From: Deltaproteobacteria bacterium
GTDB lineage: Bacteria > Desulfobacterota > Desulfomonilia > UBA1062
Assembly: GCA_029552245.1 (NCBI GenBank)
Contig: JAKPDW010000025.1
Span: forward strand, 240,104 to 304,103
DNA length: 64,000 bases
Direction of reading: 5' to 3'
Part shown: one piece after another, positions 3,569 through 62,630 of the stretch
Numbering within the stretch: position 1 is the first letter of the stretch
Layout of the letters: every line of letters starts with the position of its first letter
The notes under the pieces: generated by a model
Seen by the model: only the letters and a program-made list of their open reading frames with translations
Databases searched by the model: none
What the model was told of the DNA's origin: nothing
Program-made: the position numbers and the translations under genes

Positions 3569-3721
3569 GCGGGCGGGCTTCAGGCCGACTCGGGCGCGGA
3601 CATTCCACGGGCGATCCGTTGAGAACCATTGACAAGGCGGGGGAAACGAATTATCTTGATTTTACGTGAACTGTTCCCCCAGCAGGAATATTCCCACAGA
3701 GAGAACGAGGAGGAGGTAGTT

Positions 3722-4762
3722 ATGAAAGTGAAGAGGCTCTTCTTGGCTGAAGCAATCGTGGCATTAGCCCTGTTCGCGAGCGCGACGGGTGCCTTTGCGG
3801 AGAACCGTGAAGGCGCCGTGAACGTGACTCCATGGATCGGAGGCTACAATCTCGACGGCGATCTGCCCTTTGACAACGGTACGGTGTTCGGTCTCGGTCT
3901 CGGGTACAACTTCACCGAGAAGATCGGCGCCGAGCTTTCCCTCTACTATGTGGAGACCGATTACGACGGCCCCCCTCTCATCGACGGCGGGATCGACTTC
4001 AATGACGACGACGCCTCGATCTACCTCGGCAAGCTCGATGCCCTGTACCACATCACCGGCATGCTGCCGGACATGGTGGTCCCGTATCTCGCCGCGGGCA
4101 TCGGCGTGAACACGTACGACAGCGACATGAAGGGCGTGGACTCTGACACGGACCTCATCCTCAACTACGGCGCCGGACTGAAGTTTTTCCTGAAGAGGGA
4201 CATCGCGCTCAGGGCTGACGCCCGCCATGTCCTCGACTTCGACGGCGGCGACACGTACAACAACTTCCTCTATACGTTCGGCCTGTGCTTCGAATTCGGC
4301 GGCAAGACCAAGGAGGCAGAGGTGGTGACCGTGGAGCCCGAGCCGGCCCCCGCGCCCGCCCCGGCCCCTGCGCCCGAGCCCGCCCCTGCGGTCGCCCCCA
4401 CGCCGCCCCCGGTGGAGAAGCAGGGCGCCATCGTCTTCAGGAACATCCAGTTCGACCTCAACAAGGCGACCCTCAAGGAAGAGAGCTACCCGATCCTCGA
4501 CGAGGTCGCTGACTACCTGAAGGCCAATCCTTCCGTGAAGATGGAAGTCCAGGGCCACACCTGCAACCTCGGCAAGGCCGAATACAACCTCAAGCTCTCC
4601 GACCAGAGGGCCAAGGCCGTGAAGGATTACCTGGTCGGCAAGGGTATCGCGGCGGACAGGCTGGATGCGAAGGGTTACGGCCTGACGAAGCCCGCATTCC
4701 CCAACGACTCCGAGGAGAACAGGTCGAAGAACAGGAGGGTCGAGTTCAAGCCCATCCAGTAA
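3722..4762 (+). CDS. OmpA-family outer-membrane protein (beta-barrel N-domain, PA-rich linker, OmpA C-domain)
   Basis: Start ATG 3722 preceded by GGAGGAGG SD. Signal-like MKVKRLFLAEAIVALALFASATGAFA, proline/alanine linker PEPAPAPAPAPAPEPAPAVAPTPPP, and OmpA-like C-domain (NIQFDLNKATL...QGHTCNLGKAEYNLKLSDQRAKAV...RRVEF). Confidence 0.85.
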   Translation: MKVKRLFLAEAIVALALFASATGAFAENREGAVNVTPWIGGYNLDGDLPFDNGTVFGLGLGYNFTEKIGAELSLYYVETDYDGPPLIDGGIDFNDDDASIYLGKLDALYHITGMLPDMVVPYLAAGIGVNTYDSDMKGVDSDTDLILNYGAGLKFFLKRDIALRADARHVLDFDGGDTYNNFLYTFGLCFEFGGKTKEAEVVTVEPEPAPAPAPAPAPEPAPAVAPTPPPVEKQGAIVFRNIQFDLNKATLKEESYPILDEVADYLKANPSVKMEVQGHTCNLGKAEYNLKLSDQRAKAVKDYLVGKGIAADRLDAKGYGLTKPAFPNDSEENRSKNRRVEFKPIQ

Positions 4763-4865
4763 CAGGAAGCATCGTTCCGATCTGGTTCAGGCTGCAGACG
4801 ACGTGGCCCGGGCCTCCGTGCGGGGGCTCCGGCCCGTGTCATCAGGAGAGGGCAAGGGGGTGCAC

Positions 4866-5390
4866 ATGGAGAGTCGGCGGTCCGAGACGCTTGTCATGGC
4901 GCTCTCCAACGAGCGCAGGGAACGTGCGTTCTACCTCGCGCAGGCCGAGAGGACCCGTAACCGTCTCGGCCGGTCCATGTTCCTGAGGATCGCGGACGAC
5001 GAGCTCGAACACGCCGTGCGGCTGGAGAGGATACACGAAGAACTCGCCCGCGGTGGCGCCTGGCCTGAAGGGGTCGAGCTGGGTCTCAAACTGGGCGAGG
5101 TCGGGAGGTCTCTCGATGCCCTCGTCGGCGAACTCGGTCAGGCCGCAGGCGAGGCGGACGCGGACGACCTCGAGGCCGTCGAGACCGCGTGCAGGTTCGA
5201 GGCGGAGGGTGAGAGGCTCTATGCCCAGCTCGCCGGGGCGGCCTCCGAGAAGAGAGAGAAAGCTTTCTTCGAACTCCTCTCGTCCATGGAGCGGGAGCAC
5301 TTCCGGGCCCTGAAGGAGGTGGAGGAGTATCTCCGGGACCCCGCGTCCTACTTCACCGTGAAGGAGCGTCACGGCCTGGACGGGGCTTGA
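4866..5390 (+). CDS. ferritin-like/rubrerythrin-family diiron protein
   Basis: Internal Met with AGGGGG SD. Two E-x-x-H-containing helices (DELEHAVRLE, EREHFRALKE) typical of the rubrerythrin/ferritin-like fold. Confidence 0.55.
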   Translation: MESRRSETLVMALSNERRERAFYLAQAERTRNRLGRSMFLRIADDELEHAVRLERIHEELARGGAWPEGVELGLKLGEVGRSLDALVGELGQAAGEADADDLEAVETACRFEAEGERLYAQLAGAASEKREKAFFELLSSMEREHFRALKEVEEYLRDPASYFTVKERHGLDGA

Positions 5391-5613: not shown

Positions 5614-6684
5614 ATGAGGATCATCGCTGTCATCAACCAGAAGGGCGGGTGCGGAAAGACGACCACGGCCATCAACCTGGGGGCGTGCCTTGCCGGTTTG
5701 TCGAGGAGGGTTCTGGTGGTCGACCTCGACCCCCAGGCCCACGCCACCCTCGGGTTCGGGGTCGACCAGGGGGAGTTCCGCCTGAGCAGCTACGATCTCC
5801 TCATGGAAGGCCGAGACGGGCTTCTCTCTTCTGACATGATCATAAGCCTGAACGAGCGTCTCGACCTCATCCCCTCCGACGTCATGCTCAGCGCGGCCGA
5901 ACCCGTACTGCTGCAGCGCGACGGGAGGGAGCACGTGCTGGAGTCCGTCCTCGCACCACTGGACGGGCGCTACGATTTCGTCGTGCTGGACTGCCCGCCG
6001 AACATCGGCGTGCTCACCTTCAACGCCCTGTATGCGTGCACCGAGGCCATCATACCCATGGAGAGCGGCCTGTTCGCGCTTCACGGGCTGGCCAAGCTGC
6101 TCGAGACCATCGATGTGGTCAACGGCAACCGGGAGGTTCCCATCGAGGTTCACGCGCTCGCCACCATGTTCGACAGGAGGACGAGGATCGCCCACGAGTC
6201 CCTGGAGGAACTCAGGAAGCACATGAGGGGCCGCGTCTTCAGGACGGTCGTGAACTTCAACGTGAAGCTCAAGGAGGCCTCCGGCTACGGCATGCACATC
6301 CTCGAGTACGACCCGGACTCCCAGGGCGCGAAGGACTACCTCGCGCTCGCCAGGGAGGTCCTCTCGGCACGGCCCTCGGCGCGCAAGAGGAGGAAGAAGG
6401 AGGGGTTCCTCAAGCCGGTGGTCACCGAGGACGGGGTGCTCTTCACGTACTACTCGCCCGAGGCCACGTCGGTCCACGTGGTTGCGGACTTCAACGGCTG
6501 GGACACGTCGGGTCTCCCCATGGAGAACGTGGCGGGCACGGGCATGTGGCAACGCTTCGTTCCCCTGAAGAAGGGCAGGTACGAATACAAGTTCCTCGTC
6601 GACGGCAGGTGGGTCAGCGACCCTGACAACCCGAGAAGGGCCGCGAACGAGTTCGGCGAGAACTCGATCCTCGAGATAGCGTGA
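5614..6684 (+). CDS. ParA/Soj-type P-loop ATPase fused to C-terminal CBM48/AMPK-beta glycogen-binding (E-set) domain
   Basis: GGGAGGTG SD then ATG 5614. MRIIAVINQKGGCGKTTTAINLG (deviant Walker A KGGxGKT), VVDLDPQ, LDCPP (Walker B). C-terminal 90 aa FTYYSPEATSVHVVADFNGWDTSGLPMENVAGTGMWQRFVPLKKGRYEYKFLVDGRWVSDPDNP matches the AMPK1_CBM/CBM48 pattern (F.W..V.V.G.FN.W...YKF.VDG.W..DP). Confidence 0.8.
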   Translation: MRIIAVINQKGGCGKTTTAINLGACLAGLSRRVLVVDLDPQAHATLGFGVDQGEFRLSSYDLLMEGRDGLLSSDMIISLNERLDLIPSDVMLSAAEPVLLQRDGREHVLESVLAPLDGRYDFVVLDCPPNIGVLTFNALYACTEAIIPMESGLFALHGLAKLLETIDVVNGNREVPIEVHALATMFDRRTRIAHESLEELRKHMRGRVFRTVVNFNVKLKEASGYGMHILEYDPDSQGAKDYLALAREVLSARPSARKRRKKEGFLKPVVTEDGVLFTYYSPEATSVHVVADFNGWDTSGLPMENVAGTGMWQRFVPLKKGRYEYKFLVDGRWVSDPDNPRRAANEFGENSILEIA

Positions 6685-7538
6685 GCATGCGCGACAGGCC
6701 GAGACTGGGCAGGGGCCTGAAAGACGTGTCGAGGTACTTCCTCGCGGACTCGCATCCCCGCGGCGGTCCCGACCCCGTACCTACGAGCGAGGACGCCCGG
6801 CCGATAAGCGTCTTCGTGTTCCACGCGTCGTCCCCCGAGGTCCAGTCTCTGCTCACCCTCGCCCTCGCCATGGAGACCGCCAGGCTCGGGCGAGGCGCCC
6901 TCATATGGGATGGTATGGCCCAAGGGGCGCAGGGGGTCAAGCGCCTGGCAGGGGGGCTCCTGGCCCGGCCCGGCGGCCGGGATAAGGGCGGGGGCTGCTG
7001 CATAAGGCTCTACGGCCTGGGCGCGATCCCGATACACGATGCGGCCTGCCCGGTCTGGTCGCAGGCGGAGGCCAGTTGCCTTGACCTGCCCGGTGACGGC
7101 GATACCGCCCGAGGGGAGCTCCTCGTGTTCGTCAACGCCTCGCCCGACATGGGTTTCTTCACTCGGGGTGACCTCCCCGACCACACGGTCATCGCGGCCC
7201 GTACCGACGAGCGCAGCCTGCTCAAGGCCTACGCGTGCATGAGGGTGATGGACAGGAGGGCCCCTGGGTCGAGGATGTACCTGGTCCTCGAGGCCCACGG
7301 GGGGGAGCCGGCCAACCAGTGCGACCGGACGTTCGAGAAGCTCGCCTCGTTCGCAAGGGAGAACTCGAAGGCGGCCATCGCATACCTCGGGTGCCTGATC
7401 GCCGACGACGAGACGGCCAGGTCCATCCACGAGGCGGACCCGCTCGCGCTCATGATGTCGCAGTCTCCGGCCGGGGCCTCGCTGAGGGGCGTGTGTTCCC
7501 GCTTCCTGGATCTCGTGCTCGCAGGGGAAACGCCGTGA
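6681..7538 (+). CDS. ParA/MinD-fold paralogue lacking canonical Walker A (pseudo-ATPase partner)
   Basis: GTG start overlaps the upstream stop (GTGA). Architecture parallels MinD (ISVFVFHASSPEVQSLLTLALAMETARLGRGALIWD ... ELLVFVNASPDMGFFT ... HTVIAARTDERSLLKAY), but KGGxGK[ST] is replaced by HASSPEVQS. Confidence 0.5.
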   Translation: MSMRDRPRLGRGLKDVSRYFLADSHPRGGPDPVPTSEDARPISVFVFHASSPEVQSLLTLALAMETARLGRGALIWDGMAQGAQGVKRLAGGLLARPGGRDKGGGCCIRLYGLGAIPIHDAACPVWSQAEASCLDLPGDGDTARGELLVFVNASPDMGFFTRGDLPDHTVIAARTDERSLLKAYACMRVMDRRAPGSRMYLVLEAHGGEPANQCDRTFEKLASFARENSKAAIAYLGCLIADDETARSIHEADPLALMMSQSPAGASLRGVCSRFLDLVLAGETP

Positions 7539-8122
7539 GCCCACCCCCAAGGACGCTCCCGCCCCTTGTCGTCACCGACCCGGCCGAGGTCTCGAGGCTC
7601 TGTGCGCGATGGATCACGGACGTGCTCGGGTGCACGATCGTGGACTTCGGCATCGGGAACAGGTTCATCGGGAGCATCGACGTCCTGGCGGTATCGCACG
7701 ACGTGGTCCATCTGGTGACGGTCGACACGGGGAGCTTCGCCGACGCCCTCCTCGGTGCGTTCACGGGGTACTGGTGGTTCGTCGAGAACAGGGCGTTCTT
7801 GGACAGGATCTACGGCTCGGAAGACACCCCGCTTATGGGCGACGTGGTGCTCGTGATCCTCTCCCGCGACCCTCCGCGGGGGATCCAGAGGATCCTGCCC
7901 TCCCTGCTCAAGGTCAAGCTGCGCCTCTTTCGGTATGCGACCATGGGGACCGCCGAAGAGCCCTTCCTGTGCGTGGAGGAGCTCACCCTCGACGAGGACT
8001 CGGGCGGAGAGACCCACGAGGCCGGTGACGTCGAGGCGCTCGTCCGTGAACTGGGCATCGAGGAGGCGGGGCTCGACGGCGACGAGATCCGGCGCCTCAT
8101 TGCTGCGTTGCGGGCTGCTTGA
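7535..8122 (+). CDS. hypothetical protein, third gene of the ParA-CBM48 operon
   Basis: GTG 7535 overlaps the upstream stop (GTGA) in the same frame as the track ORF 7235..8122. 196 aa with no recognised domain and an acidic C-terminus. Confidence 0.45.
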   Translation: MSPPPRTLPPLVVTDPAEVSRLCARWITDVLGCTIVDFGIGNRFIGSIDVLAVSHDVVHLVTVDTGSFADALLGAFTGYWWFVENRAFLDRIYGSEDTPLMGDVVLVILSRDPPRGIQRILPSLLKVKLRLFRYATMGTAEEPFLCVEELTLDEDSGGETHEAGDVEALVRELGIEEAGLDGDEIRRLIAALRAA

Positions 8123-24742: not shown

Positions 24743-24851
24743 GCCACCGGTCACGCTCGGGGTGGGCCCTGTTCGGACGTTGTGTCAGACCCAAAGGGCT
24801 AAATAATACAGACAGGCCACCGGTCACGCTCGGGGTGGGCCCTGTTCGGAC
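24743..24851. repeat. two perfect 36-bp direct repeats (GCCACCGGTCACGCTCGGGGTGGGCCCTGTTCGGAC) separated by a 37-bp AT-rich spacer; period 73 bp
   Basis: Copies at 24743-24778 and 24816-24851, identical. Spacer gttgtgtcagacccaaagggctaaataatacagacag is far below local GC. The second copy overlaps the last codons of the 2-hydroxyacid dehydrogenase ORF. Confidence 0.6.
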
Positions 24852-25855
24852 CCCAGGGGGTGACCTCCCCGGGGTACGTTCCAGATGAACGTGCCGTGCT
24901 CGAGGAAGTGCAACGCCTGCCGCACGGTCTGGGCCGCCTTTCTCTCCACCGACTCCTGCGTGTTGAACGCGTTGTGCGGGGTGCACAAGACGTCCTTCCT
25001 CATGGCGAGCCTCGAGACCGCATCCGCCCCGGGGTGAACCCCGGGCGCGCCCGATCTCATCGCCTGGGCGAGGGCGCTCTCGTCTGCGTACACGTCGAGG
25101 CCCACACCCGAAAGGTGACCTTCCTCCAAGAGCTTGAGGAGATCGGACTCGCGCACGAACTCCCCCCTTGCCACGTTGATGAACACGGCGCCGGGCTTCG
25201 CCCTCTTGAGGACATCGTAGGAGAAGTATCCTGCGTTGTCGGCGGTCAGGTTCATGGAGCAGACGATGACGTCCGCCCTGGCGAGGGCGTCCTCGAGGTT
25301 CGTGTACCTGACCCAGCCATGCCTCCTGACGATGTCCACACCCAGGACCTCCATGCCCAGCGCGCCGGCGAGGCGGCACACTTCCGAACCGATGGATCCC
25401 ACGCCCACCACCGCGACCGTCTTGCCGAGGCACTCCCACCCGGTGAGACCGTCCCTGTCGAAGCGGGTGAGGTTCTCGATCTGCGCAGGGAGCCTGCGCA
25501 TGAGGGCCATCCACATCATGAGGGCGTGCTCCGCCACGGCCCGGCTGCAGTAGTGGGGGAGGTACCCGGCAGGGATGTCCCTGTGCGATGCCTCGAGAAA
25601 GGAGAGCACGTGGTCGTAACCGGTGCTCCTGGTGAGGATCGCCTGTATATCCCTCTCCCACGCACGGGGGATGACCGACTGCGTCCGTATGCACAGGATT
25701 CCCCCGGGAAGCGTTGTGTGGCCTGACTCCTGGATGGTGAGGGGGAAAAACGCCGCCTTCGTGTTCCCGGGCAGATGCCGCTTGAGGGCCTCGCGCTCCT
25801 CCTTGAAGACCTCGTAGAAGACGATGTCCACCCCCTTCCTGTACCTCAGCCGCAT
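24824..25855 (-). CDS. D-isomer-specific 2-hydroxyacid dehydrogenase family protein (NAD-binding)
   Basis: Internal Met (complement 25853-25855) of the 746-aa track ORF gives MRLRYRKGVDIVFYEV... with Rossmann GKTVAVVGVGSIGSEV and catalytic region ...INVARGEFV...LDVY...CTPHNAF. The upstream 400 codons are an artefact. Confidence 0.75.
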   Translation of the reverse strand: MRLRYRKGVDIVFYEVFKEEREALKRHLPGNTKAAFFPLTIQESGHTTLPGGILCIRTQSVIPRAWERDIQAILTRSTGYDHVLSFLEASHRDIPAGYLPHYCSRAVAEHALMMWMALMRRLPAQIENLTRFDRDGLTGWECLGKTVAVVGVGSIGSEVCRLAGALGMEVLGVDIVRRHGWVRYTNLEDALARADVIVCSMNLTADNAGYFSYDVLKRAKPGAVFINVARGEFVRESDLLKLLEEGHLSGVGLDVYADESALAQAMRSGAPGVHPGADAVSRLAMRKDVLCTPHNAFNTQESVERKAAQTVRQALHFLEHGTFIWNVPRGGHPLGSEQGPPRA

Positions 25856-25993
25856 GCCCCATGGCAACAGGCGCTCGCGGAGGAAGGACCCTTGAAGGGG
25901 GTGAGTCGGTCCGGGCCGCTCAAGTTCGCCACTTGTGCTACCGTAACGATGCACGTGGGCCACCAGAGGCGGCCCGGCGCATGGGTGAGGGAC

Positions 25994-27208
25994 ATGAGGA
26001 AGGTCATGACATTCTTGGTTCCAGGCGGCGTGCTCGCGCTCGCATCCCTCCTCCTCGTCAGGCTCGACGCGATGGAGGGCTGCCTCGACGAGGTCTCCCG
26101 GCTCTACCCTGTCCTCGCCACGGCCCTCGGCGTCGCCTACGGGCTCAGGTTCGACCGCTCCTCGCTCGTCCTCGGTGCGCTGTGTCCCGCAATGGCGCTC
26201 TGGTCGCTCTCTTTCTTCGGGTCCATCCACGATCCCACGGACATGCACTGGCGCGTTGCGTATGTGTCGTGCAGCGTGCTTTTGCCCGTGAACCTGTGCG
26301 TGCTCTGCCTGCTCAAGGAGAGGGGAACGCTGACCGCAAGGGGGATCGCGAGGCTCCTCGCGATCCTTGCGCAGCCCCTCGTCGTGGGGGCGGTCGCGGG
26401 TAGGGACCCCTCCAGGTTCGTGAACGTGCTCGAGCGCGGGGTGATCCCGTGGGGGTTCGCGGAAGCCCTCCCTCTCCCCCAGGTATCGGCGCTTGCGGGC
26501 GCGGTGTGCCTGATCTTGACCGCGGTCCTCTTCGTGGTCAGGGGCGGGGCCAGGGAGGCGGGGTTCTTCTGGGCGCAACTCGCGAGCATCGCGGCCTTGG
26601 CCTCGGGGCCGGACCGAGAGGTCGCGGCCTTTCACCTGGGGAGCGCATCGCTGATACTCCTTGTCTCCATGGTGGAGATCTCCCACGCCATGGCGTTCAA
26701 GGACGAGCTCACCGGGCTGCCCGGGAGAAGGGCGCTCAAGGAAGAGCTCCTGAAGCTCGGCTCCGAGTACTGCCTTGCCATGGTGGACATCGACCACTTC
26801 AAGAAGTTCAACGATACCTACGGTCACGACGCCGGAGACCAGGTGCTGAAGATGGTCGCCTCGCGGCTGGGACATGTGGGTGGTGGGGGCAGGGCGTTCC
26901 GTTACGGCGGGGAGGAGTTCACGATCGTGTTTTCCGGGAGGAATGCCCAGGATGCACTCGAGCACCTGGAGGAGTTGAGGAAGGACGTGGCGTCTTTCCC
27001 GTTCGTGATCCGGTCGGCGCTGAGGCCGATCAGGAGCCCGGACCGAAGGGGTGTCCGTTCGCACGGGCGCAAGAACGTCACGATCACCATAAGCGTGGGC
27101 GCGGCCTGGCCGGGGGGCTCTGCCTCGAAGCCCGAAGAGGTGCTCGAGGCCGCGGACAAGGCCTTGTACAGGGCGAAGAAGAGGGGAAGGAACAGGGTGG
27201 AGTCTTGA
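25994..27208 (+). CDS. membrane-anchored diguanylate cyclase (GGDEF)
   Basis: About 6 N-terminal TM helices then GGDEF domain with RYGGEEF active site and inhibitory-site-like KELLKLGSEY. Start chosen at Met 25994; Met 26006 is also possible. Confidence 0.75.
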   Translation: MRKVMTFLVPGGVLALASLLLVRLDAMEGCLDEVSRLYPVLATALGVAYGLRFDRSSLVLGALCPAMALWSLSFFGSIHDPTDMHWRVAYVSCSVLLPVNLCVLCLLKERGTLTARGIARLLAILAQPLVVGAVAGRDPSRFVNVLERGVIPWGFAEALPLPQVSALAGAVCLILTAVLFVVRGGAREAGFFWAQLASIAALASGPDREVAAFHLGSASLILLVSMVEISHAMAFKDELTGLPGRRALKEELLKLGSEYCLAMVDIDHFKKFNDTYGHDAGDQVLKMVASRLGHVGGGGRAFRYGGEEFTIVFSGRNAQDALEHLEELRKDVASFPFVIRSALRPIRSPDRRGVRSHGRKNVTITISVGAAWPGGSASKPEEVLEAADKALYRAKKRGRNRVES

Positions 27209-38377: not shown

Positions 38378-39079
38378 TCACCCCGTCTCGTAGGGGCCTG
38401 TGCCCATGCATGCGGGGCAACGCTGGCCGAGGTCGGCCATGTAGGCCTCCCCGCACGAAGGGCAGAGGGACACCGGCCTATGCCTTCTGGTCCTGGATGC
38501 GAGGAAGTCCCGCTTCACGCGCACGTGCTCGATGCCGTAGATGCTCCTCCCCGCCTTCTTGATCTCCTCGACGATCTCGGCCTGGTCCTGCTCGGCCTTC
38601 GCTTTCTCCTTGAGGAACCAGGCGCGAAGGGCAGGCCACGGACCGAGGGCGGAGGCGTCAAGGAACACGCGGACGCCCTCTCCCGTGTACTTGTCGAAGA
38701 ACGCGAGCGCGTAGCGCGAGGTCTCGCATACCTTGAGCCAGCCGTTCCCCAGGGTGCACGGCGTCAGGAGCTGGACCGCGTCCGGCAGGCACTTCGCGCT
38801 CTCGCAGACGACGTCGTAGAGCTTGCCCTGGGGAAGGTGTTCCCTGGCGATGTCCACCATGACGCCGCCCGCTATGACGCCCGGCGCGGCGCTGCCGTGA
38901 AACTCCCTCACCTTGTCCACGAACTCGTCGAATGCGTACTGTCCGATCTTCACCGCCGCCTCCCTGTCTCGAACGTCCCGAGGGCCCGCCTGTGGTTCAG
39001 CGAGGGCCGCATGCGCGGTGCCCGTCTTTCGGTACAGGCGCCGCATCGACATCTGGGATCGCGAACAGCACCTGGACAC
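38378..39079 (-). CDS. FmdE/FwdE-domain protein with C-terminal C4 zinc ribbon
   Basis: FwdE-family core FHGSAAPGVIAGGVMVDIA...PCTLGNGW and C-terminal CPSCGE...CPAC. Start may be the Met at 39052. Confidence 0.6.
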   Translation of the reverse strand: MSRCCSRSQMSMRRLYRKTGTAHAALAEPQAGPRDVRDREAAVKIGQYAFDEFVDKVREFHGSAAPGVIAGGVMVDIAREHLPQGKLYDVVCESAKCLPDAVQLLTPCTLGNGWLKVCETSRYALAFFDKYTGEGVRVFLDASALGPWPALRAWFLKEKAKAEQDQAEIVEEIKKAGRSIYGIEHVRVKRDFLASRTRRHRPVSLCPSCGEAYMADLGQRCPACMGTGPYETG

Positions 39080-39521: not shown

Positions 39522-40766
39522 TCACGGTGCATCAGGGCTCACGAGCCTCGCCCGTCTGCCGAGGCGCCAGAGCACGGTTCCCGCGATCAGCCCTATCACG
39601 TACCCGTAGGGGAGCCCGGCTGCCACCAGGCCCACGAGAACGGTGACGGGGAAGCCGTTCGCCTCGCCCACGACGTCCCGGATGAGCCAGATGAGGGCGA
39701 GGGCCTCGAAGAGCAGCAGCACGCCGAGCATGGGCAGGGGGAACGCCTTCACGACGTGGTCGAAGCCGGTCCCCAGAAAGAGCCCGCACGTGACGAGCAG
39801 GGCGCCGTAGATGACCACCGACCCGCCGGTGCGCCCGCCGAAGGCGAAGTGGCCGGCCATGCCGCCGGAGCCGTGGCAGGTGGGCACGCCGCCGAACCAC
39901 GGGTTGACGAGGTTCATGACGGCGTAGGTGAGCCCGATCCTCTTGATCGACAGGGGGCGCTCCGGGAAGAGGTCGACGGCGAGCTGGCGCGTGGCGAGCA
40001 CCGAGTTGCACAGCGACAGGGGGATCTGGGGCAGGGCGAGCACCACGAAGCCGGTCGCCATGTCCGCGGGGCTGAACGAGGCGAGCGATGGCAGGTGGAA
40101 GCCGAGGCTCGAGGCCAGGGCGTCGCCCTCGAGATTGAAGGCGAAGGCGTAGACGAGCCCCATGACGACCACCGCGAGCGCGGCCGGGAAGCGCCTGTTC
40201 CCGAGGAGCGCCACGGTGGCGACGAAGGCGGCCAACGCCAACACATAACCCATGGCACCGTCCGACAGCACGAACTTGCCGAGCGCCACGCCTGCCAGCT
40301 GGAGCCCGAGCCCGAGCTGGATACCCCTGATCACGCACTTGGGTACCACCCTCCCCAACCAGTCGAGCATCCCGGTGAGCGCGAGCAGGAGCATGACGAG
40401 GCCGATGGCAAGCCCCGCGCCGTGGAGCTGGGCGGCCGTGACCTGCTGGGATATCACTATGGCTGCCATGGCCTTCAGGGGTTGAACCGGCATGGGCATC
40501 CTGTAGGAAAGCCCCGTGAAGACCTGCATCAGGCCGAACATGACGAGCACGCTCGTCGCGTCCAGCCCGCAGGCAAGCGTCACCCCGATGAGCAGGGGGA
40601 TGTCCGTGCCCATGTCCCCGAACGCGCCCGCGAGCTCGTTCCTGTTGAACCGTATCCTGGCGCCGGCGGCACCACCGCTCACGTGGGGGCGGTCCACCGG
40701 TGCGGCCTGCAGGGGCTGCGTCACCCGGGCCTTGGGGTCGGGCGCGGTGCCCGGTTGCGTGTTCAT
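39522..40766 (-). CDS. polytopic anion transporter, putative molybdate/sulfate transporter (MOT1/SulP-like, 414 aa)
   Basis: C-terminal part of the 873-aa track ORF from MNTQPG... About 11 TM helices with a two-repeat organisation (MFGLMQVFTGLSYRMPMPVQPLKAMAA ... TCHGSGGMAGHFAFGGRTG). ATG overlaps the stop of the upstream molybdoenzyme gene (ATGA). Family assignment is tentative. Confidence 0.5.
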   Translation of the reverse strand: MNTQPGTAPDPKARVTQPLQAAPVDRPHVSGGAAGARIRFNRNELAGAFGDMGTDIPLLIGVTLACGLDATSVLVMFGLMQVFTGLSYRMPMPVQPLKAMAAIVISQQVTAAQLHGAGLAIGLVMLLLALTGMLDWLGRVVPKCVIRGIQLGLGLQLAGVALGKFVLSDGAMGYVLALAAFVATVALLGNRRFPAALAVVVMGLVYAFAFNLEGDALASSLGFHLPSLASFSPADMATGFVVLALPQIPLSLCNSVLATRQLAVDLFPERPLSIKRIGLTYAVMNLVNPWFGGVPTCHGSGGMAGHFAFGGRTGGSVVIYGALLVTCGLFLGTGFDHVVKAFPLPMLGVLLLFEALALIWLIRDVVGEANGFPVTVLVGLVAAGLPYGYVIGLIAGTVLWRLGRRARLVSPDAP

Positions 40767-43000
40767 GCGGGCTCTATCCTGCAGGGCACGTACCTGTGGA
40801 TGGGCGTGGCTGCGAACCTGTCGCGGTTCGTGGTCTTCGTGAGCCGGTTCACGTTGGCTCCGTAGGCCCTGCCCTGGTAGACGAGCCCGAACCCGTGGGG
40901 TATGAGGACCTGTCCCTTCCTCGTCGCCTCGGTCACCTCGGCCTCCACCTCGACCTCGCCGGCCTCGGTGATCACGCGCACGATCTGGCCGTCCGAGATG
41001 CCGATCCTGCCGGCGTCCTCCGGGTGGACGCTCACGGTGCAGGCACGTCTGCCCTCGTTCCATGCAGGGTCGCGCATGAGGGTGTTCGCGTTTGCGCTCA
41101 TGTGTCTGCCGGCCTGGAGGATGAGGGGGTAGTCTGGGTGGGGCGCCAGCGCCTCTTCTTCGCGGCCGGGCTCGATCTCCCTCACCCAGGGGTCCATCTC
41201 CGGGATGGAGACGTGGAGTTTCTTGTCCTCGTGGGCGATCATCGAGAAGTTGTCCTCCTTGTCGGCGAGCCCCAGGATCAACCCCTCCGGGTGGTCGAGG
41301 ATCGCCTGGAAGATCTCCTCCCCCATCGTGATGCCGGGCGTGAACCCGGCCCTCGCAGCCGCCTTCCTGAAGGACTTGGGCGCCGTCTGGAGGAGTCCCC
41401 ACAGGGCGGCCAGGTTGGGTGAGCCGAGCCGCTCTCCCAGGGTCTTCGCGAGGATGAACGGCATGTTCGCAAGCGCCCTCGGCTCGGCGGTCGCGTAGTT
41501 CATGAGCTCCGCGCCGAAGGTGAGACGGTCCTTGGAGGCGGCCTCGACGAGAGAGTCGGGTATGGGAGGGACGATGCCGAGTTTCTCGGCGAGCATCGTG
41601 TGGATGCTGCTCAGCTCCAGCCTCTCGCCCTCGGGCTCGACCACGGGCCGCCTCATCTGGAAGTAGATCTCGGGGAAGGTCCAGGCGAAGAAGGTCCCGT
41701 CCCACGACTCGTAGCCCGAGCGCGCGGGCAGGACGTAGTGGGACAGGCGCGCCGTCTCGGTCATGGAGAGCTCGCAGGTGACGAGCAGGTCGAGCCTTCC
41801 GAACGCCTTCTCGTACATGGTGGTGTCCGCGAACGACCTCAGCGGGTTCGACTGGCAGCACAGCACCGCCCTGAGCCGCTCCGGGTGGTCCGAGAGGATC
41901 TCCTCGGGCATGACGTTGGGGGGGTACACGCCCATGAGCGCAGGGAACCCCGTGGTCACGGTCTTCCAGTTCTTCGGGTCGCGCTCGTCGGTGTGCGCGC
42001 CGATGGGCATGAGGTGGCCGGGGATCACGTTGCCGCCCGGCACGCAGAGCCTGCCGCAGACGGCGAGCAGGAGGAGCAGGAGGTAGGTGGTCGCCGTGCT
42101 GTGGCGGTTCATGTACACGCCGAGGTCCGTGTGCATGCACCACCTGCGCGTGGTCATGAGTCTGCAGAGCCCACGCACGGCGTCATAGTCGAGCTCGCAG
42201 ACCCTCACCGCGTCGCGGGCGTCGAACCCCCTGAACCAGGGCTCGATCTCCTCGAAGCCCTGGACATGCAGCTCGAGGTACTCCCTGTCCTGCCAGCCCT
42301 CCTCGAGGATGATCGAGATCATGGCCCTGGCGAGGAGCGCGTCCGTCCCGGGCCTCACGGGAAGGTGGATGTCGGCGATCTCGGCCGTCTCGGACCTGCG
42401 CGGGTCGATGACCACGAGCAGCTTGTCCGGGTTCTTGGAGAACTCCCTCAAGACCAGGGGCGCGCGCGGCATCTGGTGGCTCTGCATGCCGTTCCACCCC
42501 ACGGCCACGAGCATGTCCGCTTCCTCCTCGTGGGGGATGGCGTAGAGGTACTGCCTGCCCGCGAGCCTGCCCGAGGCCCAGAAGATGCCGGTAAGCTCCT
42601 GGGCGAGGGCGTTGTAGTGGTAACGGGAGCCGAGCGCCCGCATGAGCCTCACACCGAATGCGGCCTCGAAGTGGCAGCCCTGTCCCCCTCCGCCCATGTA
42701 TGCGAGGCTCCTCGGGCCGTGGGTCTCGACGATCGCCTTGAGCCTCTCGGCGATCTCCCCGATCGCCTGGTCCCAGGAGATGCGCTCGAAGCGGTCGCCC
42801 ACCCTCTTGAGGGGAGAGGAGATCCTGTCCGCGTGGTGCTGGTGGAAGGCGATGTTGGCGCCCTTGCGGCACAGGTAGCCCTTGGAGCGGGGGTTGTCCC
42901 TGTCGCCCCTCGCCTTGACGATGCGGTTGTTCTCCACGTACACCTCGAGCCCGCAGTTCTGCGCGCAGAGCACGCACCCCGTCTTCTTCCATTCACCCAT
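40763..43000 (-). CDS. molybdopterin-dependent oxidoreductase (formate-dehydrogenase-like, MopB superfamily) with N-terminal 4Fe-4S
   Basis: 745 aa. N-terminal CVLCAQNCGL...CRKG cluster motif and MopB-type domains. No in-frame TGA, so a Cys rather than Sec form, if homologous to Sec enzymes at all. Confidence 0.8.
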   Translation of the reverse strand: MGEWKKTGCVLCAQNCGLEVYVENNRIVKARGDRDNPRSKGYLCRKGANIAFHQHHADRISSPLKRVGDRFERISWDQAIGEIAERLKAIVETHGPRSLAYMGGGGQGCHFEAAFGVRLMRALGSRYHYNALAQELTGIFWASGRLAGRQYLYAIPHEEEADMLVAVGWNGMQSHQMPRAPLVLREFSKNPDKLLVVIDPRRSETAEIADIHLPVRPGTDALLARAMISIILEEGWQDREYLELHVQGFEEIEPWFRGFDARDAVRVCELDYDAVRGLCRLMTTRRWCMHTDLGVYMNRHSTATTYLLLLLLAVCGRLCVPGGNVIPGHLMPIGAHTDERDPKNWKTVTTGFPALMGVYPPNVMPEEILSDHPERLRAVLCCQSNPLRSFADTTMYEKAFGRLDLLVTCELSMTETARLSHYVLPARSGYESWDGTFFAWTFPEIYFQMRRPVVEPEGERLELSSIHTMLAEKLGIVPPIPDSLVEAASKDRLTFGAELMNYATAEPRALANMPFILAKTLGERLGSPNLAALWGLLQTAPKSFRKAAARAGFTPGITMGEEIFQAILDHPEGLILGLADKEDNFSMIAHEDKKLHVSIPEMDPWVREIEPGREEEALAPHPDYPLILQAGRHMSANANTLMRDPAWNEGRRACTVSVHPEDAGRIGISDGQIVRVITEAGEVEVEAEVTEATRKGQVLIPHGFGLVYQGRAYGANVNRLTKTTNRDRFAATPIHRYVPCRIEPA

Positions 43001-43771: not shown

Positions 43772-45439
43772 ATGGCCGTCCATGACCTGGCAGGGAAGCC
43801 CGTGCCAAGATCGATGCTCGTGGACACCGCCTCGCTGGTGGATGCGTACTACCGCACCAGGCCCGACCCGGCCCACCCGGGGTGCCGCGTGTCGTTCGGC
43901 ACCTCGGGACACAGGGGGTCGTCGATCGCCGCCAGCTTCAACGAGGACCACATCCTGGCCATCACGCAGGCCATCTGCGATTACAAGAGGGAATTCGGGA
44001 TCACGGGCCCCGTGTTCGTGGGCAGGGACACCCACGCGCTGTCGGAGCCGGCCTTCAAGACCGCGATCGAGGTGCTTGCAGCCAACGCTCTCACGGCGAT
44101 GGTGGACGAGGACCTGGGGTTCACCCCCACGCCGTCGGTGTCCAGGGCCGTCATCGAGTACAACCGCTCGAGGTCATCGGACCCCGCGGACGGGATCGTG
44201 ATCACCCCTTCGCACAACGGCCCCGAGGACGGCGGGTTCAAGTACAACCCGCCGGAGGGAGGCCCCGCGGACACCAAGACCACGGGGTGGATCGAGAAAC
44301 GCGCGAACGCCCTGTTGGAGGGCCGCCTGGCCGGTGTCAGGCGGATCCCCTACGAACGGGCGCTGTCAGCCCCCACCACCACCAGGTACGACTTCACCGG
44401 GCCGTATGTCGAGGGGCTCGCCTCGGTCATCGACATGGGATCCATCGCATCTTCCGGCCTCAGGCTCTGCGCCGACGCCCTGGGCGGTTCGGGCGCGTCC
44501 TACTGGCACCGGATAGCCGAGCGCTACGCCCTGTCCATAGATGTCCTGCACGACACCGCGGATGCGACCTTCGGCTTCATGACCCTCGATCACGACGGCC
44601 GGATCCGCATGGACTGTTCGTCGCCGTACGCCATGGCGTCCCTCGTGGCGCTGAAAGACCGCTACGACCTCGCCTTCGGCAACGACCCGGACTTCGACAG
44701 GCACGGGATCGTGACCGGGAAGGCCGGGCTCATGAACCCGAACCACTTCCTGGCGGCGGCCGTGGTGCACCTCTTTTCCTCGAGGCCCTCCTGGCTGCCG
44801 TCCTCGGGCGTGGGCAAGACGCTCGTGAGCAGCGCCATGATTGACAGGGCCGCGGAGCTCGTCCGAAGGGAGCTCTTCGAGACCCCGGTAGGGTTCAAGT
44901 GGTTCGTCGAGCCCCTGATCGGGGGCCGCGTGGCCTTCGCGGGAGAGGAGAGCGCAGGCGCGTCGCTCGTGTGCATGGACGGCTCGGTGTGGACCACGGA
45001 CAAGGACGGCATCGCCATGGCGCTCGTCGCGGCGGAGATGCTCGCGCGCACGGGCAAGGACCCCTCGGATCTCTACCGGGAACTCGAAGAACGCTTCGGC
45101 GTGTACCACTACGAGAGGATCGACGTGCCTGCGGGCCCGAGGGAGAAGGCGGCGCTCTCGGGAATCACCCCGGACATGGTCGAGGCGAGGGTGCTGGCCG
45201 GCGATGCGGTGACAGCCGTCCTCACGAGGGCGCCGGCGAACGGCGCGGCCATCGGCGGCATAAAGGTCGTAACGGCCTCGGGCTGGTTCGCTGCTCGGCC
45301 CTCGGGCACGGAGGACGTCTACAAGATCTACGCAGAGAGCTTCAGGGGTCCCGACCATCTGGCCCTCATCCAGGAAGAGGCGCGCTCGCTCGTAAGCACC
45401 GTCTTCGGCCGCCAGGCCTCCACGGGGGGTGGGGCGTGA
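43772..45439 (+). CDS. pgm: phosphoglucomutase (alpha-D-glucose phosphate-specific)
   Basis: 555 aa. GTSGHRG, Ser-loop region, SHNGPEDGGFKYN, GEESAG motifs. Confidence 0.9.
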   Translation: MAVHDLAGKPVPRSMLVDTASLVDAYYRTRPDPAHPGCRVSFGTSGHRGSSIAASFNEDHILAITQAICDYKREFGITGPVFVGRDTHALSEPAFKTAIEVLAANALTAMVDEDLGFTPTPSVSRAVIEYNRSRSSDPADGIVITPSHNGPEDGGFKYNPPEGGPADTKTTGWIEKRANALLEGRLAGVRRIPYERALSAPTTTRYDFTGPYVEGLASVIDMGSIASSGLRLCADALGGSGASYWHRIAERYALSIDVLHDTADATFGFMTLDHDGRIRMDCSSPYAMASLVALKDRYDLAFGNDPDFDRHGIVTGKAGLMNPNHFLAAAVVHLFSSRPSWLPSSGVGKTLVSSAMIDRAAELVRRELFETPVGFKWFVEPLIGGRVAFAGEESAGASLVCMDGSVWTTDKDGIAMALVAAEMLARTGKDPSDLYRELEERFGVYHYERIDVPAGPREKAALSGITPDMVEARVLAGDAVTAVLTRAPANGAAIGGIKVVTASGWFAARPSGTEDVYKIYAESFRGPDHLALIQEEARSLVSTVFGRQASTGGGA

Positions 45440-51133: not shown

Positions 51134-51401
51134 TCGGGCGGACTTTTACGGTCCGTCTGTGCAATCCGCATCTTCCATGGGGAGCGTCCCTGCGGCTTTG
51201 TGCAACGAGCGCAACGTGAGGGCGCGGGGCGACCCCGTCCTTTCAAGCGCTCTCCCCAGGTTTCGTGCAACCGCAGGCCCGCCTTCGAGGGGGATGCACC
51301 GCCTGCCGTTCGGGCATGGGAGGTCGATCGCGTCTTTTGCCTGCGGGCATGCTGGATGTGTACAAGCAGCCCCTGTTGTGATAGCATTTTCTTTTCCGGC
51401 C

Positions 51402-51803
51402 ATGCCGTACGCTCTCGTGGACCATACCGCGGATATGGCGCTTCGGGTCAGGGCCCCGTCTATCGAGGCCCTCTTCGCCGAGGCCGCCCTCGGCCTCTGC
51501 GAGGTGCTCGACGCCCGTACCTCGTATCCCGAGGAGACCCTGCGCGTGGAACTCGAGGGCATGGACATGGAGGACCTCCTCGTGAGGTGGTTGCAGGAGG
51601 TGCTCTACCTGGTGGGGGTGAAGGGGTTCAGGGTGTACACCGTGGGCCGCATCGCCGTTGCGGGAACTTGCCTGGCGGCGGAGCTCGAAGGCGCGTTCGG
51701 GTGCGGGACTCTCGCCCTCGAGGTGAAGGCCGTGACCTACCACGGGCTCTCGATCGAGCGCGACGGGGGGGACGTCACGGCCACCGTCGTTCTCGACGTG
51801 TAA
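51402..51803 (+). CDS. archease (RtcB activator)
   Basis: MPYALVDHTADMALRVRAPSIEALFAEAA... 133 aa, archease signature. Confidence 0.8.
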   Translation: MPYALVDHTADMALRVRAPSIEALFAEAALGLCEVLDARTSYPEETLRVELEGMDMEDLLVRWLQEVLYLVGVKGFRVYTVGRIAVAGTCLAAELEGAFGCGTLALEVKAVTYHGLSIERDGGDVTATVVLDV

Positions 51804-51814
51804 TGGGGGGATCC

Positions 51815-53257
51815 ATGCCTCAACCGGTCAAACGCCGCATCGACGAGTACCGCATCGAGATCGAGCGTGTCCCGCCCATGAGGAGCAGGGGGCTCGTGTA
51901 CGCCAACAGGGCGATCGAGCGCACGATCGAGCACGACAACGTGCTGCAGCAGGTGGTGAACGTGGCGTGCCTGCCGGGCATCATCGGGCCCTCGATCGCC
52001 ATGCCCGACATCCACTGGGGCTACGGGTTCCCCATCGGCGGGGTGGCCGCCTTCTCCCTTGACGAGGGGGTCATCTCCCCGGGAGGGGTGGGCTACGACA
52101 TCAATTGCGGTGTGGGGTGCATCCTCACCGGGCTCGAGGAGAAGGACGCCGCCTTGCATACGGAGGTCCTGCTGGCGGCGCTCTTCAACGAGGTCCCCTC
52201 GGGAGTGGGGTCCAAAGGCGGCATCACCGGCGTCACCGAGAAGGAGTTCAGGAGGGTGCTCGAGCAGGGGGCCGGCTGGGCCGTGAGGAAAGGGTACTTG
52301 CCGGCCGAAGACCTCGACGCCTTCGAGGACGGGGGGTGCATCCCCGGCGCCGACCCCGATGCAGCCTCTGCCAGGGCCTACGAGAGGGGCATGCCCCAGC
52401 TCGGGACCCTGGGTTCCGGAAACCACTTCCTGGAACTGGACGTGGTCCAGGAGATCCATGACCGGAAAACCGCCGAAGCCTTCGGGCTCTTCGAGGGACA
52501 GGTCGTGGTGCTCGTGCACACGGGGTCGCGGGGGTTCGGGCACCAGGTCTGCGACGAGTACGTGCGGGACATGATAGCGGCGTCCGCCAGGTACGGCATA
52601 GACCTGCCGGACCGCCAGCTCGCCTGCGCGCCCGTGCGGAGCAGGGAGGGCAGGGAGTATCTCGGGGCCATGGCCGCCTCGGCCAACTTCGCCTTCGCGA
52701 ACCGGGCGATCGTGGCGTATCTCGTGAGGCGCGCGTTCGAGCGCGTCTTCGGCCTCTCCTTCGAGAGGCTCGGCATGCGCATGCTCGTGGACTGCTGCCA
52801 CAACGTGGCCAAGGTCGAGCGGGTGGAGTGGGAGGGCCGGGTGGTGGAGGCCTGTATCCACCGCAAGGGCGCCACGAGGGCCCTGCCCGCAGGCGATGTG
52901 AGGCTGCCCGCGAGGTACGCGGTCACGGGCCAGCCCGTGCTCGTTCCCGGCGACATGGGCAGGATGTCCTTCATCCTGTGCGCCCTCGACGGCGCCAGGG
53001 AGACCTTCTTCAGCGCCTGCCACGGCGCCGGGAGGCTGCTGTCGAGGCACGAGGCGAAGAGGGTATCCAGGGGCAGGAAGATCCTGGACGAGCTCAGGCA
53101 CAAAGGGATCCGGGCCATGGCGGCCTCGAAGGCCACGCTCGCGGAAGAGATCCCGGACGCCTACAAGGACGTTTCCGATGTCGTGGACACGGTCTCGGGC
53201 GCGGGCATCGCCAGGCCCGTGGCCCGGCTCAGGCCGTTCGCCATGGTCAAGGGGTGA
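51815..53257 (+). CDS. rtcB: RNA-splicing ligase RtcB (3'-phosphate/5'-hydroxy nucleic acid ligase)
   Basis: GGGGGGA SD. RtcB motifs PDIHWGYGFPIGGV, GYDINCG, GSGNHF, HTGSRGFGHQV, CHNVA, ACHGAGR. An alternative ATG at 51803 overlaps the archease TAA. Confidence 0.9.
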   Translation: MPQPVKRRIDEYRIEIERVPPMRSRGLVYANRAIERTIEHDNVLQQVVNVACLPGIIGPSIAMPDIHWGYGFPIGGVAAFSLDEGVISPGGVGYDINCGVGCILTGLEEKDAALHTEVLLAALFNEVPSGVGSKGGITGVTEKEFRRVLEQGAGWAVRKGYLPAEDLDAFEDGGCIPGADPDAASARAYERGMPQLGTLGSGNHFLELDVVQEIHDRKTAEAFGLFEGQVVVLVHTGSRGFGHQVCDEYVRDMIAASARYGIDLPDRQLACAPVRSREGREYLGAMAASANFAFANRAIVAYLVRRAFERVFGLSFERLGMRMLVDCCHNVAKVERVEWEGRVVEACIHRKGATRALPAGDVRLPARYAVTGQPVLVPGDMGRMSFILCALDGARETFFSACHGAGRLLSRHEAKRVSRGRKILDELRHKGIRAMAASKATLAEEIPDAYKDVSDVVDTVSGAGIARPVARLRPFAMVKG

Positions 53258-62542: not shown

Positions 62543-62630
62543 TGGTGCCGGAGAAGGGAATCGAACCCCCACGGACGTAACGTCCATCGGATTTTGAGTC
62601 CGACGCGTCTACCAGTTCCACCACTCCGGC
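62543..62630 (-). tRNA. tRNA-Leu (anticodon CAA), type II with long variable arm, CCA encoded
   Basis: Reverse complement folds as GCCGGAG (acceptor) / D-arm / anticodon stem TCGGA-CTCAAAA-TCCGA (anticodon CAA) / long variable arm TGGACGTTACGTCCG / T-arm GGGGGTTCGATTCCC...CTCCGGC ACCA. Confidence 0.8.

Follow-up and report, generated by a model that had tools for sequence, protein, structure and literature searches.

A three-gene chromosomal locus encoding a ParA-type ATPase with a C-terminal glycogen-binding domain: a candidate positioning module

What use might a bacterium have for a ParA-type ATPase that ends in a glycogen-binding domain? The question is raised by three genes in a stretch of 64,000 nucleotides (the window) from contig JAKPDW010000025.1, part of a Deltaproteobacteria metagenome-assembled genome (MAG) whose nearest relatives are Desulfomonilia MAGs. 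ATPases of the ParA/MinD class are the general placement machinery of bacteria, serving chromosomes, plasmids, carboxysomes, chemoreceptor arrays, flagella and the divisome; to our knowledge, and from a search of the literature, active positioning of storage polysaccharide granules has not been addressed so far. We consider it probable that the three genes constitute a self-contained chromosomal spatial module of the ParA type, with gene 2 encoding the activator. The full reading, a nucleoid-based ParA module activated by gene 2 and having glycogen as its cargo, is more tentative, and we give it a little less than even weight.

Gene 1 (5614–6684, + strand, 356 aa) encodes a Soj/ParA-type ATPase with a C-terminal CBM48, as identified by Pfam. 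Gene 2 (6681–7538, + strand, 285 aa) encodes a predicted P-loop-less pseudo-ATPase of FlhG/MinD fold, assigned from a family profile and Foldseek, and gene 3 (7535–8122, + strand, 195 aa) an acidic protein whose predicted structure has a PD-(D/E)xK nuclease-like fold; the gene numbers are also used for the products. An earlier note on this DNA had described three open reading frames (ORFs) arranged head-to-tail at these coordinates, with the GTG start codons of genes 2 and 3 each overlapping the TGA of the gene before (GTGA in both cases), and the ORFs and overlaps are as it described them. Gene 1 starts at MRIIAVINQKGGCGKTT, its ATG 5 bases 3′ of a GGAGGTG Shine–Dalgarno sequence. An in-frame ATG at 6687, 6 nt downstream of the GTG, is an equally plausible start for gene 2, whose homologues begin M(K/R)(D/E)(R/K)P(K/R)LGRGL or MSTRERPRLGRGL; genes 1 and 2 are translationally coupled with either start. 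By exact sequence match gene 2 is HPP80603.1 (locus tag PLQ43_06880).

Predicted architecture of the three proteins

The ATPase domain of gene 1 (aa 1–255; 5614–6378, + strand) is of the Soj/ParA type (AAA_31, E = 1.2e-49; CbiA, 1.1e-18) and gene 1 is 40–45% identical to chromosomal Soj/ParA proteins. Its closest solved relatives are M. xanthus ParA (PDB: 8ray, 6e-56), T. thermophilus Soj (1wcv/2bek) and H. pylori Soj (6iub); no NCBIfam model spans the whole architecture of the protein. The deviant Walker A motif KGGCGKTT (K10-GGCGK15-T16-T17, nt 5641–5664) is intact. Among 24 homologues N8-QKGGCGKT-T17, D37/D39, the Walker B residue D126 and R189 are invariant or nearly so, and position 218 is K or R in the same alignment. 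K218 aligns with R238 of M. xanthus ParA, presumably a DNA-contacting residue, and R189 occupies the position of B. subtilis Soj R189, which we take to be a DNA-binding residue. R238 is the residue altered in the ParA-R238E variant (PMC12462528). The domain thus has the look of a catalytically working ATPase, and from these residues gene 1 would be expected to bind the nucleoid non-specifically when ATP is bound.

The ATPase is joined by a short, mostly basic linker of ∼ 12 aa (ARKRRKKEGFL) to a CBM48/AMPK-beta-type glycogen-binding domain (aa 268–356; 6415–6681, + strand), identified from Pfam and PDB matches. Both Pfam families that the earlier note had proposed to check lie above their curated cut-offs and within residues 271–346: CBM_48 (PF02922; 1.2e-12, 48.4 bits against a cut-off of 22.4, residues 271–333) and AMPK1_CBM (PF16561; 7.4e-10, 39.3 bits against 26.8). 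In the PDB the domain matches the AMPK beta-2 and beta-1 CBMs (∼ 1e-6), which have been solved with sugars, as well as pullulanase and the N-domains of GlgB; its closest plasmid-borne relatives are the CBM48s of GlgB. W296, K326, W333, G348 and N350 of gene 1 align with W100, K126, W133, G147 and N150 of AMPK beta-1. In a survey of 140 ParA–CBM48 proteins (33–100% identity), W296 is conserved in 140/140, K326 in 135/137 (K or R), W333 in 137/137, G348 in 136/136 and N350 in 131/136. N150 of AMPK beta-1 is a sugar-contact residue. In the same protein glycogen binding is lost with W100G or K126Q and reduced with W133L or G147R (PMC6274970). Because the surface residues that stack on sugar are conserved, the alignment argues that the CBM48 of gene 1 retains binding to alpha-glucan (glycogen).

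Gene 2 has no match in Pfam, NCBIfam or PADLOC, and its homologues are named ‘MinD/ParA family protein’ or ‘hypothetical protein’ in their sources. The MinD-like fold that had been read from its sequence is recovered by two routes. A family profile built from six members, gathered from the neighbourhoods of gene 1 homologues, matches the FleN/FlhG structures of the PDB (3e-10, positions 55–251). An AlphaFold2 (AF2) model from 11 sequences (predicted template modelling score, pTM, 0.76; mean predicted local distance difference test, pLDDT, 70) finds FlhG with Foldseek (4rz2, E = 4.5e-11, probability 1.00), followed by FleN, MinD and Soj. Under local iteration of hidden Markov models (HMMs) the family merges with all true ParAs; hhalign places it against the gene 1 family weakly (20% probability, E = 1e-3), in register.

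At the P-loop site, between the model strand 42–48 and the helix 52–68, gene 2 reads HASSPEVQS (aa 48–56; 6822–6848, + strand), as the earlier note had pointed out, and both lysines are gone. By the predicted structure and the alignment S51 and S56 are invariant, and in the close family the positions of the signature and Walker A lysines vary or hold Q/E; neither gene 2 nor that family has a functional Walker A (GKGGxGK[ST]). Lacking this motif, gene 2 does not qualify as a functional MinD/FlhG and is predicted to be a catalytically dead protein of the FlhG/MinD fold. FlhG/FleN supply its best profile and structural matches. Unlike them, however, it lacks both P-loop lysines and lies outside a flagellar locus. 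It ends 5 residues past the last fold helix (263–280), so that in the model there is no extra C-terminal segment for a membrane-targeting helix, and a ParB-like N-terminal peptide replaces the helix that activates FlhF. A distant homologue from the ‘bacterium Meg19’ MAG (L012:1123–2085) keeps a classical Walker A (VVTGGDRTPGKST; GDRTPGKST) and, at its N-terminus, the peptide TLADVSHLFFS. An active FlhG-like ATPase is the probable ancestor of the pseudo-ATPase, and judging by their motifs some members of the family may still hydrolyse ATP.

Residues 1–38 of gene 2 are predicted to be disordered (pLDDT < 50) and contain RPRLGRGLKDVSRYFL, with the core RPRLGRGL. Alignment identifies aa 6–22 (RPRLGRGLKDVSRYFLA; 6696–6746, + strand) as a ParB-like, putative ParA-binding and ParA-activating motif, with the consensus (K/R)P(K/R)LGRGLx(D/E)(V/I)SxxFLS in the close family. 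A control set was formed by the canonical ParBs encoded 3′ of ordinary Soj genes at 42 loci from the gene 1 alignment scan; since all 42 start with (K/R)(K/R)(G/A)LG(K/R)GLxAL(F/L/I), the basic-LG(R/K)GL core is common to gene 2 and the ParBs. In ParB this N-terminal motif is what binds ParA: with DNA present, a peptide of 20 residues suffices to stimulate the ParA ATPase, and the central R/K of the peptide is required (PMC12462528). The pocket that receives it is kept in part in gene 1, where L150-G151-L152 of M. xanthus ParA corresponds to I131-G132-V133 and Y81-E82 to Y60-D61. The resemblance suggests that the gene 2 peptide activates the gene 1 ATPase.

Distant gene 2 members are left with the pattern basic-xx(V/I)(S/G/A)x(F/Y/L)FL (e.g. 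NLSEIGHLFLS, RLARISHHFLS, RELADVLHYFL). Variants of the peptide also open ORFs directly 3′ of ParA–CBM48 at L019:1851–2507, L025:5111–6016 and L026:5102–5845, where they read KGFEDISHYFLS, HISSIAHHFLPG and IRSIGHYFLSG. Beyond the peptide these ORFs diverge, that of L019 having Cys-rich motifs and that of L026 resembling a remote gene 2. The peptide may be a universal signature of the partners of the ParA–CBM48 clade. About 2.6 kb downstream of a Planctomycetia ParA–CBM48 lies a short ORF (L016:6045–6605) that starts with MNRKLGRGLSNL, a ParB-type motif, and is far too small for a ParB.

Gene 3 had been described as having no recognizable domain. This stands for Pfam, but structure prediction reveals a PD-(D/E)xK nuclease-like fold. 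There is no Pfam or PADLOC match; NCBIfam returns only a meaningless MotA (E = 0.03, 13 bits against a cut-off of 340), a profile search of the PDB gave nothing meaningful (best PhoQ, E = 0.18) and a HMMER scan of 1.84 billion representatives yielded 15 clusters only. The AF2 model from 14 sequences is confident (pLDDT 85.4, pTM 0.80). Its core, alpha-beta-beta-beta-alpha-beta-alpha-beta-beta over residues 16–150, is predicted to include the alpha-beta-beta-beta-alpha-beta core of restriction endonucleases. An acidic linker leads to a C-terminal two-helix tail (aa 166–194; 8030–8116, + strand; pLDDT 62–72) that is conserved across the family alignments, with the consensus LRxELGIExAxLSDEEIxxFL.

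I48, D49 and N85 are the only invariant residues of gene 3. The third-strand positions equivalent to (D/E)xK, T63 and D65 in a catalytic register set by eye against NucS and not by superposition, vary freely among 14 homologues. From the superfamily (NucS C-domain, FokI cleavage domain, XisH-like, AF1548, YraN/UPF0102) gene 3 differs in that these positions are not conserved, in being acidic and in its conserved two-helix tail. The whole family is acidic, core included (isoelectric point, pI, 4.5–5). Gene 3 is probably a non-catalytic scaffold of degenerate nuclease fold, to judge from sequence and model, and its composition makes it an unlikely DNA binder. Genes 2 and 3 are unnamed families, outside Pfam and NCBIfam.

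Recurrence of the trio and exchange of partners

More than 100 clusters of full-length gene 1 homologues have the same architecture, at 42–76% identity. A word-indexed search recovered only gene 2 itself and two proteins for gene 3, and homologues of both were therefore collected among the genes next to gene 1 homologues and through local rounds of HMM searching. The trio occurs in four close relatives (L001–L004, 69–76% identity) and, with entirely different flanks, in L005 (53%), L006 (47%) and a Syntrophobacteraceae genome (L007, 45%); local HMMs added L012, two Myxococcota MAGs (L013 and L018), Thiogranum (L034) and another gammaproteobacterium (L043). Conservation of gene order, on which the earlier note had made its proposal depend, thus extends across distant lineages, and because the same order recurs there with unrelated flanking genes the arrangement is not due to chance. 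No conserved neighbour beyond the trio was found across the loci compared.

Two rearranged loci bear on how the partners are used. A 524-aa protein of a Tepidisphaeraceae MAG (L008:7413–8987) consists of the peptide followed by segments resembling first gene 2 and then gene 3, and by the Rosetta-stone argument this fusion indicates joint action of genes 2 and 3. In a Vicinamibacterales MAG (L011:4172–4918) the peptide KPLGRGLEDISHLFL (LGRGL) is joined straight to the gene 3 domain, without a MinD-fold part. The suggestion of the earlier note that a dead paralogue and a small partner accompany the ATPase is strengthened by the ParB-like peptide, the degenerate nuclease fold and the gene 2–gene 3 fusion.

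ParA–CBM48 reaches at least eight phylum-level groups, and the anammox bacterium Kuenenia is among its carriers. The hosts sampled belong to Desulfomonilia-type bacteria, Syntrophobacteraceae, Myxococcota, Planctomycetota (Kuenenia among them), Omnitrophota, Acidobacteriota, Gemmatimonadota and Gammaproteobacteria. This survey of taxa is a sample and not a census, most of the loci listed by the gene 1 alignment scan being ordinary Soj loci, and all hosts of the trio or of ParA–CBM48 found are MAGs or enrichment organisms.

The association of ATPase and partners is not fixed. In a Nitrospirae MAG (L028:3989–6410) clear homologues of gene 2 (E = 4e-84 against its iterated profile) and gene 3 (7e-43) follow a KGGCGKTT ParA that has a C-terminal tail of ∼ 50 aa and no CBM48, so the pair is not strictly tied to that domain. 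Conversely, ParA–CBM48 of Omnitrophota and of a Planctomycetia MAG is followed by two other proteins in place of genes 2 and 3. One (Omnitrophota) is a conserved membrane protein of ∼ 105 aa; the other (Omnitrophota and Planctomycetia) is lysine/arginine-rich with a conserved C-terminal domain of ∼ 80 aa (ITHYFPHV...GHTTDF...VYK). They are encoded at L014:2012–2728, L015:5068–5834, L022:5106–5417, L023:5182–6021 and L021:4276–4962, and may be an alternative set of activators or adaptors. The ATPase–CBM48 fusion is the widespread constant, and genes 2 and 3 form one partner set among several.

An origin in plasmid partition or in phage was considered and rejected: a search of 72,556 plasmids returned no homologue of gene 2 or gene 3, and one of 50,697 phage records returned none of gene 3.

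Mechanism, precedents and rival explanations

If the parts act as their relatives do, the ATP-bound dimer of gene 1 would bind the nucleoid non-specifically, and its two CBM48s, on their short linkers, would hold alpha-glucan (glycogen) particles. The flexible ParB-like peptide of gene 2, acting as a unit with gene 3, an acidic scaffold of inactivated nuclease fold, would dock on the dimer, making it hydrolyse ATP and let go. Over many such rounds glycogen granules might become distributed or partitioned across the nucleoid, or a ParA gradient might be tied to glycogen. The granule is proposed as cargo from domain content. A broader claim, that bacteria of several phyla position or partition their glycogen granules with a dedicated nucleoid-bound ParA that grips the polysaccharide through CBM48 and is reset by a ParB-mimicking peptide on a gene 2/3 complex, is possible but rather doubtful.

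The trio would work in the manner of ParABS, McdAB or PomXYZ, yet it is not a member of ParABS, because neither a ParB nor a parS was found. Like ParABS it has a close Soj/ParA homologue (8ray, 6e-56), complete with the deviant Walker A and with basic residues where DNA is expected to be bound. Its partner, however, is a pseudo-ATPase of MinD/FlhG fold and not a ParB/Srx CTPase with a helix-turn-helix (HTH), its ParA bears a CBM48, a third protein of nuclease fold is present, and genes 2 and 3 were not found on plasmids. A repeat scan of the operon and its surroundings showed no parS-like site or centromere repeat array; the repeats it did show are at chance level and lie within coding sequence, which leaves room for a more distant site. 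McdAB (carboxysomes) and PomXYZ (division site) likewise combine a nucleoid-based ParA-type ATPase with one or two dedicated, adjacently encoded activating partners, a role that the motifs suggest for genes 2 and 3. PomXYZ is reported to use two activators jointly, one of them through an N-terminal peptide (PMC13170346, PMC7993993). The trio differs from both systems in that the predicted cargo-binding domain is on the ATPase itself and in that its partners have unrelated folds, a dead MinD and, apparently, a dead PD-(D/E)xK. No similarity of these partners to McdB, PomX or PomY turned up, although no search was aimed at those proteins. The CBM48 modules of AMPK beta, of plant PTST and SEX4 and of the GlgB/GlgX N-domains have the same fold, with the sugar-contact residues conserved in gene 1, and direct a non-glycoside-hydrolase or enzymatic partner to glycogen or starch; for such a module fused to a ParA ATPase the literature searched gives no description.

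Several observations weigh against glycogen positioning by an activated ParA. In canonical systems the activator sits on the cargo and ParA on the matrix, and we know of no precedent for a ParA that itself binds cargo. The 64-kb window contains no glycogen genes, and in ∼ 30 loci no glycogen-metabolism gene is linked to the module, nor is another CBM48 protein (GlgB, GlgX) encoded within 4–6 kb. Of the ParB-binding residues of M. xanthus ParA, L192, D110 and E117 are changed in gene 1, to R173, M91 and V98, and the LGRGL core is limited to part of the gene 2 family. The Nitrospirae ParA without CBM48 and the different partners in Omnitrophota and Planctomycetia loosen the link between the domain and genes 2 and 3. 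Finally, the gene 2 and gene 3 alignments are shallow (6–14 sequences) and the mean pLDDT of the gene 2 model is only 70.

This exchange of partners would be accommodated by supposing that the cargo is the gene 2/3 assembly, or a structure marked by it, and that the CBM48 is a regulatory or sequestration handle, glycogen granules then serving ParA as a sink or nutritional sensor. AMPK, which is tethered to and inhibited by glycogen, and ParA parked on polar scaffolds are comparable cases. The pair, which also accompanies a ParA without CBM48, may define the cargo, while the occurrence of ParA–CBM48 with other partners in other phyla is as expected of a general add-on, and the AMPK CBM is a documented glycogen sensor (PMC6274970, PMC2642990). 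But genes 2 and 3 have no recognizable cargo-binding feature (membrane segment, coiled coil or DNA-binding motif), gene 3 is acidic, and the CBM48 must bind glycogen in this case too. Of the alternatives it survives best; we regard it as unlikely.

The CBM48-like domain could instead have lost sugar binding and become a protein–protein or auto-regulatory domain, docking for instance on genes 2/3 or on the ATPase. The AMPK CBM, which makes protein contacts and docks on the kinase lobe, offers a precedent; the short ∼ 12-aa linker and the absence of genomically linked glycogen enzymes would agree with such a role. Retention of the two stacking tryptophans, the lysine and the Gly-x-Asn loop, all required to bind sugar, in 131–140 of 140 homologues is nevertheless hard to explain without a sugar ligand, and the domain persists with entirely different partners, which makes this explanation improbable.

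An atypical DNA segregation system, in which genes 2/3 replace ParB, gene 3 binds a centromere and the gene 2 peptide activates ParA, would account for the kinship of gene 1 with chromosomal Soj/ParA and for the ParB-type LGRGL peptide, and DNA binding is common among PD-(D/E)xK folds. It is equally hard to credit. Gene 3 is acidic throughout (core pI near 5); Pfam and NCBIfam detect no HTH, ribbon-helix-helix or ParB/Srx domain in genes 2/3; and the operon is free of repeat arrays and parS-like sites. The pair is missing from the 72,556 plasmids, and gene 3 from the 50,697 phage records, the flanks vary by lineage in what is, here, chromosomal housekeeping sequence, and the conserved CBM48 would be left without a role.

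Least probable by far, and rejected without a meaningful PADLOC match, is an anti-phage defence or mobile-element module of ParA-like ATPase and nuclease-fold effector: several of the folds closest to gene 3 are defence nucleases such as Shedu, HamA and Can2, and PADLOC gives weak matches for gene 1 (PDC-M28B, E = 2e-4), but the (D/E)xK positions are not conserved, genes 2/3 match no PADLOC family and lack plasmid relatives, gene 3 lacks phage relatives, the neighbours are housekeeping genes without an integrase or transposase, and G+C is uniform across the window.

The glycogen-positioning module, then, remains the reading we prefer, and the proposal of the earlier note that the system is undescribed has held up. 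Neither Pfam nor PADLOC holds a family for genes 2 and 3, and the full-text literature searched, whose coverage leaves out many subscription papers, describes no ParA–CBM48 fusion and no ParA-dependent positioning of glycogen. If the reading is true, no earlier system that actively places a granule of stored carbohydrate would be on record, nor any earlier ParA carrying its own cargo-binding domain, and glycogen would be a new class of cargo for the ParA/MinD machinery. As read here, the module would also embody new design principles: cargo binding on the ATPase, a ParB activation peptide on an unrelated pseudo-enzyme, and two dead enzyme folds as adaptors. The idea is directly testable, since the CBM48 predicts the ligand and the 17-residue peptide the activator, and with ParA–CBM48 spread over several phyla the biology would not be confined to one lineage.

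Genomic setting of the locus

The window is ordinary chromosomal housekeeping sequence of uniform G+C (63–70%). Its other genes encode a PAS histidine kinase, DUF362/ferredoxin proteins, phosphoglucomutase, RtcB, Hsp33, SelB and a tRNA-Leu. No integrase, transposase or other sign of a mobile element was seen among them or among the neighbours of the loci examined, and a promoter and terminator scan around the operon gave nothing informative. Phosphoglucomutase (43772–45439) does lie ∼ 36 kb from the trio, where the earlier note had placed it, but this is too distant to carry weight as a link to glycogen and was dismissed.

Directly upstream of the trio (3629–5390) are genes for an OmpA-family outer-membrane protein with an Ala/Pro-rich linker and a rubrerythrin-like protein. 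The same pair precedes the trio in the Desulfomonilia-type relatives L001–L004 and not in more distant lineages; because it is confined to these relatives it represents lineage synteny and lies outside the module.

Two of the longest ORFs elsewhere in the window have long N-terminal extensions without a family match: that of RtcB (51200–53257, 685 aa), with the RtcB domain at 251–685 only, and that of a D-2-hydroxyacid dehydrogenase (24824–27064, 746 aa), with the domain at 464–726 only. The probable explanation is that the ORF starts lie too far upstream in this high-GC sequence; extra domains are a possible one. The selenocysteine elongation factor SelB (59044–60918, – strand), a molybdopterin oxidoreductase (40763–43000, – strand) and an FmdE-like protein (38378–39079, – strand) point to a selenoprotein-using anaerobe. 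The sole tRNA of the window is tRNA-Leu(CAA), at 62543–62630.

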